The translations under genes and the position numbers were made by a program. DNA of 64,000 nucleotides, taken from NCBI GenBank assembly GCA_029260165.1, contig JAJDDT010000097.1, positions 11,099 through 75,098 on the forward strand, written 5' to 3'. The notes beneath the pieces were generated by a model. That model worked only from the letters and a program-made list of their open reading frames with translations. It made no database searches and was not told the origin of the DNA. Source of the stretch: Phycisphaerae bacterium (GTDB lineage: Bacteria > Planctomycetota > Phycisphaerae > UBA1845). Below are positions 49,837-51,289 of the stretch, one piece after another; positions within the stretch are counted from its first letter, which is position 1; the number at the start of each line of letters is the position of its first letter.

Positions 49837-50445
49837 CTACTTCTGCTTCTCGCCTTCTTTCTTCAACGCGCTCAACTCCGCACGCAAACCTGCCAGCTTG
49901 TCCATTTCCTTTTGATGCTCAGCCTCTGCTTCCGCGTCGATCAAACGATCGATTTCGTCGTCACTCACGACACTATCAGCATCGCTGACCTCGATATTGT
50001 CCGACGCGATCGACTCGACCGAATCGAGGAACATGTTCATCCGCTCCTCCATCGTCTCCGACTGCAACATCGCTTTTTCCCAGTCCGCCTGCGTCTTCAT
50101 CAAATCCGTTTCACCGAACAATCGACCAATTTCGCTGGCCATCAAGCCCATGCTCTTGGAAAAATCCGCCGACGCCTCCGCCTGCCGCTTGATCAACAAC
50201 GCGTTCTTGACCGTTAGCAACTGCCGTTCCAACATCTTCTTAACGGTGGCGGTCTTCTTCAGCGAATTGCGAATGAAGTTGTATTGCTGCGTATCGCCGA
50301 TACGCTTGGCCTGCTGTGCGTTCCTGACAAAATCGTCCGTAAACTTATTCTGCTCGCGAATGGACTTCTCGATCCGCCGAATCCCCTGGCGAATTTTCAT
50401 ATCCCGCTCGATGCGACGCTCGTCAGCCGACTTGAACAAACCCAT
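49837..50445 (-). CDS. Snf7/ESCRT-III-like protein
   Basis: 202 aa, helical; MGLF start, basic N-half, acidic C-half, DDEIDRLI helix, terminal LRAELSALKK; GAGG RBS. Confidence 0.72.
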   Translation of the reverse strand: MGLFKSADERRIERDMKIRQGIRRIEKSIREQNKFTDDFVRNAQQAKRIGDTQQYNFIRNSLKKTATVKKMLERQLLTVKNALLIKRQAEASADFSKSMGLMASEIGRLFGETDLMKTQADWEKAMLQSETMEERMNMFLDSVESIASDNIEVSDADSVVSDDEIDRLIDAEAEAEHQKEMDKLAGLRAELSALKKEGEKQK

Positions 50446-50469
50446 GAAAAAACCTCGCTGCAACGGCGA

Positions 50470-50664
50470 CTAATAATATTCGCGTTCCGGAATCACCATC
50501 CACAAAACGATATAGACCAATACACCCGAAAATGCCGTGAGTATTGACAACAACACATAGCCGACGCGAACAGCCGTCGGATCAATATCCAGATACTCCG
50601 CCAAACCACCACACACCCCGCCGATTTGCCGGTCCATTTGAGATCGCCGTAGCGTTTTCGACAT
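50470..50664 (-). CDS. pspC: PspC domain-containing protein
   Basis: LRRS..DRQIGGVCGGLAEYLDIDPTAVR...YIVLWMVIPE. Confidence 0.95.
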   Translation of the reverse strand: MSKTLRRSQMDRQIGGVCGGLAEYLDIDPTAVRVGYVLLSILTAFSGVLVYIVLWMVIPEREYY

Positions 50665-50677
50665 GATTCAATTCCCT

Positions 50678-51289
50678 CTATTCATCGGTGGCTGCCTGCT
50701 GTTGATCGCGAACGCGACGATCCGCCTCATCAAACGCCTCGGACGTATCCGCAATGGCACCGTTGTCCATCCGCTCCCAAATACCCATCACCTCCGAGCC
50801 TGACTCGGACAATCCGCTCGAACCCTCGTCCACCTCCGCCCCAAGCCTCAACACCTCGTCAAGCCGCTCCTGATACACCTCAGCCCGAATCGAGTCCTTT
50901 TCAATCAGCTTCCCGAGCTTGAGCATGTCCCGTTCGCTCACCAAACCGAGCTTGCCGCCAATTTTGGCAGACCGATCGTGCGACTCCCGCAACATCCGCA
51001 ACCGCGACACGGTGAGCAATTCCTTCGACCGCAGATTCAACTGCCGCGCGACCATCAACTGCTCGGTCGTCTTCATCTCAAACTCTTGGGCGAGCGCCCT
51101 GCGAACCTCCGGCGTTCGCTCCGTGGCACCTGTCTCGAAAACTTTTCGCTTCTCATCCGCCAATTTCCTGATCCGCGACATCATGCGCGAGCGATCCTTC
51201 TCGATCAGCAACTCCTGCCGGCGAAGCTCCGTTCGCGACAGGTCCGCCAACCCCTTCTTCCGATTCGTCAACCAATCCAGCAAACTCAT
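50678..51289 (-). CDS. Second ESCRT-III-like coiled-coil protein
   Basis: 203 aa, MSLLDWL amphipathic start, basic hairpin helices, acidic C-terminus. Confidence 0.6.
   Translation of the reverse strand: MSLLDWLTNRKKGLADLSRTELRRQELLIEKDRSRMMSRIRKLADEKRKVFETGATERTPEVRRALAQEFEMKTTEQLMVARQLNLRSKELLTVSRLRMLRESHDRSAKIGGKLGLVSERDMLKLGKLIEKDSIRAEVYQERLDEVLRLGAEVDEGSSGLSESGSEVMGIWERMDNGAIADTSEAFDEADRRVRDQQQAATDE

Follow-up and report, generated by a model that had tools for sequence, protein, structure and literature searches.

The described systems closest to the gene cluster analysed here are the archaeal Cdv system (CdvB, CdvB1-2 and CdvC), the eukaryotic CHMP2A/CHMP3 (Vps2/Vps24) subunits with VPS4, and the bacterial phage-shock (Psp) system with PspA, PspB/PspC and PspF. 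With regard to bacteria, the sections of Ravi et al. (2024, PMC11237479) cited here report that some Snf7-clade and PspA proteins adjoin AAA+ ATPases, for which ATP-dependent membrane remodelling was suggested, and that VPS4-like ATPases were transferred to bacteria, where a TPR-6TM gene took the place of snf7. According to the relevant part of Makarova et al. (2024, PMC10936438), ESCRT is linked by context to SPFH proteins, and an SPFH protein is required for the localisation of PspA. The pairing of ESCRT-III with Vps4 is treated as non-bacterial in the corresponding passages of recent syntheses, Makarova et al. among them, and according to a passage of a 2025 review (PMC7619361) a Vps4-like ATPase appears to be absent in bacteria. 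For Phycisphaerae, a binary-fission-like division without FtsZ is reported in the part cited of Rivas-Marin et al. (2020, PMC6952346), where the protein driving it is asked for. The cluster treated in this study lies in a stretch of 64,000 nucleotides (nt) on contig JAJDDT010000097.1 of a Phycisphaerae bacterium (GenBank assembly GCA_029260165.1). This whole stretch is called the window in the following, and all coordinates refer to its numbering. The cluster comprises genes for a protein of 202 amino acids (aa), here called protein A, for a second helical protein (protein B), for a PspC-domain protein and for an AAA+ ATPase. Based on the family membership of A, the architecture of the ATPase, the synteny and the co-occurrence of the genes, it can be stated with good confidence that the locus encodes a bacterial membrane-remodelling module of the ESCRT-III/Vps4 type.

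Judged by the profile of its relatives, protein A is a genuine ESCRT-III subunit of the Snf7/CHMP family and not PspA. When 1.84 billion cluster representatives were searched exhaustively, this yielded 309 relatives at E≤0.001, and 2916 database proteins matched A at this threshold. The mean column identity across 28 close relatives is 87%. A diverse profile was made of 50 full-length relatives, which are 23-65% identical to A, and compared with PDB at E≤10. It matched 17 distinct sequences, 13 of which are ESCRT-III proteins, including all of the top 11. The best solved structures were CHMP2A (E 9.2e-5) and CHMP3 (E 5.7e-4 to 1.9e-3), followed by Snf7 (E 0.009-0.04) and, more weakly, CHMP1B (E 0.018-0.12), CdvB2 (E 0.073) and CdvB (E 0.51). 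The other four matches were coiled coils, either designed or short, and the 17 included neither a PspA nor a Vipp1 chain. The alignments with the PDB sequences are colinear from residue 13 to about residue 168; in that with CHMP2A, residues 13-147 of A are paired with residues 10-144, and the conserved EIDRLI of A (part of an SDDEIDRLI motif) is paired with EIDRIL of CHMP3.

The Pfam family Snf7 (PF03357) was matched by 22 of the 50 relatives when these were scanned singly (best E 1.1e-7), while every other family was matched by three or fewer. PspA_IM30 was not among the 25 Pfam families listed for these relatives, unlisted families matching at most one member each, and PspA_IM30 (PF04012) also gave no match for A or B themselves at E≤0.1. 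Among 120 database relatives listed for A, four carry a precomputed PF03357 annotation. All named database relatives of A and B are entered as 'hypothetical protein', save one JGI entry (P0024/P0499) labelled as cysteinyl-tRNA synthetase. The original prediction, which had been made from the sequence of the locus, regarded the 202-aa protein as more similar to Snf7 and CdvB than to PspA. This is borne out by the profile matches to CHMP2A, CHMP3, Snf7 and CdvB, and the contrary outcome it had named, an ordinary PspA as the best profile match, was looked for and did not occur.

The AlphaFold2 model of protein A (predicted local distance difference test score, pLDDT, 75.5) shows helices at residues 7-49, 52-110, 115-148 and 162-199 in the order known from ESCRT-III. 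The top seven rows of a Foldseek search with this model were CdvB, CHMP2A-CHMP3, Loki CHMP4-7 and CdvB2 (E 0.014-0.24). Superpositions with VIA-align placed ESCRT-III hairpins on the model with a root mean square deviation (rmsd) of 1.6-3.0 Å over 102-114 residues (Z 8.3-9.3). The closest was the CHMP2A-CHMP3 entry 7zch, chain B, with 1.6 Å over 108 residues (4-111 of the model on 8-115), and Snf7 gave 2.1-2.8 Å over 102-105 residues (2.8 Å over 105 residues for 10-114 of the model on 18-122). PspA superposes with residues 38-142 on 6-110 of the model (2.8 Å, Z 8.3). Thus, the shorter hairpin layout that had been claimed for A is seen in these ranges, as A corresponds to 18-122 of Snf7 and 8-115 of CHMP2A-CHMP3 but to 38-142 of PspA. 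The string AQQAKRIGD, which had been proposed to form the turn, was found at residues 43-51, where it spans the hairpin turn with the helix break of the model at 50-51; I49, G50 and D51 do not vary across 28 sequences.

The second component which carries the proposed assignment is the ATPase, which has 373 aa and is encoded by a single-copy gene in the window genome. Among the NCBIfam models, CdvC fits it best (E 2.3e-71, residues 15-367 of 373), and Pfam AAA was matched with E 7.9e-40. Walker A (GPPGTGKT) and the Walker B residues D208-E209 are invariant in 37 sequences of the family. A stretch K181-W182-x-G184-E185 is also conserved in the family and is presumably the counterpart of the Vps4 pore loop. 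Of 37 relatives, 36 carry Vps4_C (PF09336; best E 3.8e-8); for the window ATPase, the C-terminal segment reached 21.8 bits at a cut-off of 21.3, and the full-length protein 18.6 bits. The profile of the N-domain (about 75 residues) matched TPR designs and the PDB entry 2mpk (chitin synthase 1, 74 aa; E 6e-4, residues 13-68 versus 12-67), which we take to be an MIT domain. Since the protein has one AAA cassette and a C-terminal Vps4_C helix, its architecture distinguishes it from Cdc48. As far as the sequence allows, the ATPase is therefore Vps4-like by architecture, and it is not filed as a CdvC orthologue. It differs from eukaryotic VPS4 in that it is, as inferred from its length, too short for the beta-domain.

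All genes of the module are located on the minus strand, and they are arranged as follows:

56179..57219, minus strand: 346-aa protein with hydrophobic N-terminus and helical remainder, only weak Pfam matches, at the outer edge of the conserved cluster
54637..56001, minus strand: HAMP-GGDEF diguanylate cyclase (Pfam GGDEF 1.6e-41, HAMP 1.7e-16)
54058..54483, minus strand: hydrophobic protein of 141 aa without Pfam match, its membrane character being read from the sequence only
52993..54036, minus strand: Ser/Thr protein kinase carrying a double zinc ribbon at its C-terminus (Pfam Pkinase 5.6e-39, DZR 2.8e-6)
51311..52735, minus strand (open reading frame, ORF, to 52762, 483 aa): 474-aa protein whose N-terminal domain is unassigned and whose C-terminal domain is helical and B-like
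50678..51289, minus strand: protein B, 203 aa, start MSLLDWLTNRKK / MSLLDWL, second helical family
50470..50664, minus strand: stand-alone PspC-domain membrane protein, 64 aa (PF04024 E 1.2e-24, 86.3 bits at a cut-off of 25)
49837..50445, minus strand: protein A, 202 aa, start MGLFKSADERR, ESCRT-III of the Snf7/CHMP type
48459..49580, minus strand: AAA+ ATPase, single cassette, 373 aa, with TPR/MIT-like N-domain, AAA cassette and Vps4_C helix
46658..48424, minus strand (ORF to 48496, 612 aa): 588-aa protein with a probable SPFH/Band-7 domain at its N-terminus, followed by a long C-terminal part of uncertain fold

The two ORFs on either side of pspC and the motif strings quoted in the original prediction were all found as described, and the middle ORF is indeed a PspC. 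The ORF of protein A extends from 49837 to 50463 and would give 208 aa from a TTG codon and 202 aa from the ATG at 50445. For this ATG as the start speak an M[GA]LFK start in 28/28 aligned relatives and a GAGG 8 nt upstream. From the gene of the 474-aa protein through A, the genes are separated by only 13-24 nt. The gap between A and the ATPase gene is 256 nt (49581-49836). In 61 relatives the same gap measures between 11 and 3693 nt, with a median of 721; recurrent inserts include pairs of small genes that by eye resemble nucleotidyltransferase-HEPN modules (7-8 loci), a protein of about 220 aa (12 loci) and a membrane protein of about 550 aa (8 loci). Most relatives of the 483-aa ORF begin nine codons inside, so that 52735 is its likely start codon; likewise, most relatives of the 612-aa ORF begin 24 codons inside, which makes 48424 the likely start, and with this start an apparent overlap of 38 nt with the ATPase gene disappears. 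A scan for promoters and terminators gave no excess over shuffled sequence (3 vs 3.4; 10 vs 8.0).

A close homologue of A is encoded in 223 GTDB species genomes, of which the best 80 loci were used for the following neighbourhood counts. These 80 loci all belong to metagenome-assembled planctomycetes, mostly labelled as Phycisphaerae, and many of them are cut by contig ends. The gene order is 346-aa protein (present in 38 of the 80), GGDEF protein (49), 141-aa protein (63), kinase (65), 474-aa protein (69), B (72), the facultative PspC (57), A (80), the variable gap, ATPase (61) and SPFH protein (52). In all 55 loci which hold the genes for the 474-aa protein, B, A and the ATPase, these four are colinear on one strand. 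In more distant planctomycete loci the genes are ordered B, B, ATPase, A, ATPase, or in a shortened form of this, so that one or two ATPases stand beside B and A. At loci L121-L130 of other planctomycete families (e.g. L121:4984-9190 and L125:4532-9739), tandem copies of B occur, and A is flanked by two different ATPase types, whose scores with the profile of the window type are about 310 and 520 bits.

The co-occurrence of A and the ATPase was cross-tabulated in a class survey of 401 sampled genomes with an ATPase match threshold of E≤1e-118; related genomes are non-independent samples in these counts. Protein A was found in 62/63 genomes of the order of the window genome, in 53/63 of one further family, in 1/2 of another, and in none elsewhere. 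An ATPase match was obtained in 115 of 117 A-positive genomes versus 2 of 284 A-negative ones, one of these two being the unpublished genome G660. With the broad A profile, an A-family gene was detected in 78/401 genomes of the phylum. In the further family (e.g. G624, G576, G734 and G469), the genes for A and the ATPase lie hundreds of kb to Mb apart on the same contig and yet co-occur. As the two are often this far apart in one family, their co-occurrence does not rest on adjacency alone.

The window genome has a size of 4.43 Mb and is 100% complete by marker genes. FtsZ (TIGR00065) was not found in it by a search that was positive in 13 of 14 control genomes, and PspA_IM30 was not found in the whole genome either (9 of 14 control genomes positive). 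Pfam Snf7 has no match in the window genome, because the A family is too divergent for this model.

Protein B belongs to a second helical family and is possibly a far-diverged relative of ESCRT-III. At E≤0.001, 1135 database proteins matched B. Its AlphaFold2 model (pLDDT 78.8) has helices at residues 3-8, 19-56, 60-110, 119-153, 162-175 and 182-202, and in this model the six helices are arranged like alpha0 to alpha6 of an ESCRT-III subunit. The best structural matches were BAR and eisosome domains with Z of about 11 (BAR 10.6-11.1), followed by Ist1 with 9.0, and CdvB2 appeared among the Foldseek ranks 14-31. A divergent alignment of B was made of 39 relatives gathered from planctomycete genomes, and none of these 39 matched Pfam Snf7. 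The B profile gave no significant match to solved ESCRT-III chains (CHMP2A only with E 2.2), and solved PspA or Vipp1 chains were not among its PDB matches at E≤10. When the families of B and A were compared by hhalign, deep alignments gave 36% (E 3.8e-4), with 138 columns that run colinear starting at the N-terminus, and shallow alignments 0.9%. The score of 32.3 was not reached by any of 60 column shuffles (12.1±1.9, maximum 18.4) or 60 block shuffles (16.0±2.4, maximum 24.6), and reversed alignments scored 20.6-23.4. An Atlas cluster in which 16% of the members carry Snf7 (score 0.93) is a lead only. From these comparisons, we regard it as rather likely that B belongs to the ESCRT-III superfamily. 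Of the claim that both proteins are ESCRT-III-like paralogues, the ESCRT-III assignment stands for A, and the kinship of B with A is suggestive but weak.

In the 474-aa protein, residues 267-373 correspond to positions 1-97 of the B family (hhalign 92.8%, E 4e-7), so that the C-terminal half of this protein is B-like and the cluster holds one Snf7-type and two B-type domains. The 474-aa protein has no match in Pfam or NCBIfam. Compared with the A family, hhalign gave 4% over 41 columns, and its profile matches in PDB were designed coiled coils only. Across the 39 divergent B sequences, the residues W171, D175 and G177 are invariant and form a W-x3-D-x-G pattern within V(L/M)xxWxxMDxGE (residues 162-181). 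We know of no motif that matches this pattern. Distant B-like proteins occur at L134-L140 (E 1e-10 to 1e-14 against the B profile, start MSLASWLADG), and no A or ATPase gene was found there within 5.7-11 kb.

The N-terminus of A follows the pattern M[GAS][LIWF]F[KEQT] in 28/28 close and 27/50 distant relatives; residues 1-6 are coil in the model. In B, a motif of two hydrophobic residues, D/E and W/F is found in 29/29 close and 36/39 divergent relatives. Both N-termini had been described as amphipathic. Their helical hydrophobic moments (0.04-0.06 in A, 0.16-0.25 in B) lie below the protein-wide means of 0.38 and 0.35, and the N-termini can therefore be called hydrophobic, but the amphipathic character is not borne out. 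At the other end, A carries the motif DKLAGLRAELSALKK, with which it was said to end; the motif is present near the C-terminus, and seven more residues (EGEKQK...) follow it. The C-terminal helix LAGLRAELSALK is conserved. It contains LxxL[RK]xxLxxL[KR] in 28/28 close and 2/50 distant relatives, and its hydrophobic pattern i, i+4, i+7, i+11 is kept in 32/50 distant ones. The linker of residues 149-161 is the least conserved stretch in the close family (0.66), while the flanking helices reach 0.88-0.90. With its short and hydrophobic N-terminus, an acidic linker and an amphipathic-looking terminal helix, A presumably corresponds to the layout of subunits that bear an MIT-interacting motif 1 (MIM1).

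The gene pspC, whose product had been suggested in the original prediction to recruit both proteins as a Psp sensor, is an accessory, facultative part of the module and does not belong to its core. It lies between B and A in 53/72 close loci; most of the remaining 19 leave no room for a gene at this place, and it was found in 0/28 distant loci, where the other genes are kept. Compared with the equivalog model TIGR02978, the PspC protein reached 53.7 bits, below the cut-off of 104. In the 588-aa protein, the SPFH assignment comes from its relatives: Pfam Band_7 (PF01145) was matched by 10 of 32 (best E 2.2e-9), and the window protein itself scored E 0.0097 (16.4 bits, below the cut-off of 23.6). 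Beta-propeller families match one relative each. Where the SPFH gene is present (52/80 loci), it always follows the ATPase gene.

Compared with the described systems, the locus resembles the archaeal Cdv system in that small helical proteins of the ESCRT-III type are encoded beside a single-cassette AAA+ ATPase whose best model is CdvC, in that both the profile and the Foldseek matches of A include CdvB and CdvB2, and in that FtsZ was not found in the host. It differs from Cdv in its bacterial host, in a helical, leucine-rich tail motif, and in the additional pspC, SPFH, kinase and GGDEF genes nearby; of the neighbours scanned, none was recognised as CdvA-like. With CHMP2A/CHMP3 and VPS4 it shares the subunit type, as these are the best solved-structure matches of A, but ESCRT-I or ESCRT-II parts were not seen among the scanned neighbours. 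As in bacterial Psp systems, a PspC-domain membrane protein adjoins a protein belonging to the ESCRT-III superfamily, and the locus has a probable SPFH partner, as the part cited of PMC10936438 describes for some PspA loci. Unlike in these systems, the effector is of the Snf7 type, no PspA match exists in the genome, the ATPase is Vps4-like and not an NtrC-type PspF, and pspC is dispensable in relatives. The cases given in the cited sections of Ravi et al. (2024, PMC11237479) differ from the locus, as they comprise a Snf7 protein bearing a transmembrane segment beside an ABC transporter and OmpA genes, the TPR-6TM loci, and an ATPase with two AAA domains.

Based on the analogy to these systems, the following mode of action is the most likely one. 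Protein A would polymerise on the inner face of the cytoplasmic membrane by means of its helical hairpin and its hydrophobic N-terminal motif, probably together with B-type subunits. A hexamer of the ATPase would engage the C-terminal helix of A via its TPR/MIT-like N-domain and thread A through the pore, where the K-W-x-G-E loop would be located; the ATP-driven disassembly or remodelling of the polymer might then lead to deformation or scission of the membrane. B and the B-like half of the 474-aa protein, which are probably very distant ESCRT-III relatives, may act as co-polymer or adaptor subunits. PspC, where present, and the SPFH protein could serve as membrane anchors or sensors that tether or localise the polymer, and the Ser/Thr kinase and the GGDEF protein may regulate the system. 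Membrane repair or envelope stress, the formation of vesicles or invaginations, and cytokinesis are candidates for the cellular role.

Several results weigh against the assignment as an ESCRT-III/Vps4-type module. Protein A alone gave no match in Pfam, NCBIfam or PDB, and a shallow alignment of its close relatives (87% identity) matched nothing relevant; because the window copy alone stays below every Pfam and PDB threshold, the assignment of A rests on the profile of its relatives. The BAR domains reached Z-scores of 9.9-10.6 on the model of A, against 8.3-9.3 for ESCRT-III. As the Z-scores of BAR and ESCRT-III are tied and this fold is common among helical proteins, the fold alone does not decide the identity of A; in the structure searches with A and B, ESCRT-III, BAR and other helical bundles all ranged from Z 8 to 11, and no Foldseek hit had E≤0.001. 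The ATPase scored 240.6 bits with CdvC, far under the equivalog cut-off of 650, and 227.1 and 217 bits with CDC48 and PAN. Pfam MIT was found neither in residues 1-95 of the window ATPase nor among the families listed for 37 relatives (25 of 26 families). The strict MIM1 pattern [DE]xxLxxRLxxL[KR] was found in 0/28 close and 0/50 distant relatives of A, in which respect A differs from CHMP2A/CHMP3, and the MIM1-like motif of the original prediction has to be replaced by the related leucine pattern described above. Finally, an A-family hidden Markov model scored B sequences no better than shuffled ones (median -1.1 vs -1.2; 0/44 above the shuffled maximum), and the same applied to a B-family model on A sequences.

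On the strength of such results, A and B might be taken as generic helical-bundle or BAR-like scaffolds and the ATPase as a Cdc48-like quality-control unfoldase, with no ESCRT-like cycle. BAR domains have the highest structural Z-scores for both models, Cdc48 chains rank first when the ATPase is compared with solved structures by phmmer, and B has no significant sequence link to solved ESCRT-III chains. We consider this improbable: the BAR superpositions have an rmsd of 5-6 Å versus 1.6-3.0 Å for ESCRT-III hairpins, the profiles link A to CHMP/Snf7 across the whole length including EIDRLI, and the ATPase family has Vps4_C in all but one of its 37 relatives and one AAA cassette instead of two. 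Still less probable is an ordinary stress system of the Psp type, with PspC recruiting A and B as divergent PspA/Vipp1 proteins. The position of pspC between the two genes, the binding of PspA by PspBC in E. coli, and the fold which PspA and ESCRT-III share, with PspA superposing on A as given above, fit such a system. It is contradicted by PspA_IM30, which has no match in A, B or anywhere in the genome and is absent from the families listed for the 50 relatives, and by the PDB matches of the A profile, in which 13 of 17 are ESCRT-III proper and none is PspA or Vipp1. Furthermore, pspC is missing from 19 of 72 close and all 28 distant loci, and PspF-like or PspB-like genes were not seen among the neighbours scanned. 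An anti-phage defence island around the AAA ATPase and the kinase is hardly credible at all. The ATPase is matched by PADLOC IetA (E 6.8e-36) and the kinase by PD-T4-6 (E 2.2e-60), but these are generic domain matches; A, B, PspC and the 474-aa, SPFH and 141-aa proteins have no PADLOC match, and PADLOC reports no known defence system in the window. The cluster is also near-universal in the order (62/63 genomes), colinear in 55/55 loci, and lies among housekeeping genes such as tRNA synthetase genes, which are also present in the window, unlike a mobile defence island.

A narrower reading of the same parts sees in the module the cytokinesis machine of FtsZ-less bacteria: the clade would divide or pinch its membranes with a Cdv-like ring composed of an A and B polymer, the Vps4-like ATPase, PspC and SPFH anchors and a kinase switch. 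FtsZ is missing from the results for a 100%-complete genome although 13 of 14 controls were positive, A is strongly conserved (87% across 28 relatives) and occurs in nearly all sampled genomes of the order, and in Crenarchaeota CdvB and CdvC do carry out division. The driver protein asked for in the cited part of PMC6952346 would fit as well. This role nevertheless appears doubtful to us. In most other families of the class A was not found (0/60, 0/45, 0/28, 0/22, 0/20 and others), and in the phylum the broad profile detects it in only 78 of 401 genomes, while all these bacteria lack FtsZ according to the cited part of PMC6952346; the module is therefore not the general planctomycete divisome. 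The pspC and SPFH neighbours suggest envelope maintenance equally well. If Cdv-like scission did take place in this clade, it would be the first bacterial ESCRT-III/Vps4 scission system.

The general idea of a bacterial Snf7 protein beside an AAA+ ATPase is already in print, and this planctomycete gene set was found undescribed in the literature searched. Full-text searches revealed no description of a planctomycete ESCRT-III/Vps4 cluster, although the supplements of Ravi et al. and Makarova et al. may list such loci. The main text of Ravi et al. (2024, PMC11237479) mentions neither 'Planctomycet' nor this gene set, which its supplementary tables or web app may contain, and 'escrt-iii' has 0 occurrences in a 2025 review of the phylum (PMC12673574) according to the search listing of that review. 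As a Snf7-type subunit with an ATPase of Vps4 architecture, kept across the order and a further planctomycete family, the locus counters the statements that this pairing is non-bacterial, and its host is a bacterium in which neither FtsZ nor PspA was found. Should the two proteins function like their archaeal counterparts, bacteria too would possess an ATP-driven ESCRT-III cycle, it would become testable whether Vps4 originated as an ancient gene or by transfer, and a concrete candidate for membrane remodelling or division in the FtsZ-less planctomycetes (as described in the cited part of PMC6952346) would be at hand.

Beside the module, two further long reading frames were observed in the window. 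An ORF of 2782 aa at 10991-19339 on the minus strand has no Pfam family at E≤1e-5. On the plus strand, an 843-aa protein (42555-45086) comprises DUF6851, a helical domain resembling that of vanadium chloroperoxidase and, at the C-terminus, cysteine-rich DUF4215 repeats.

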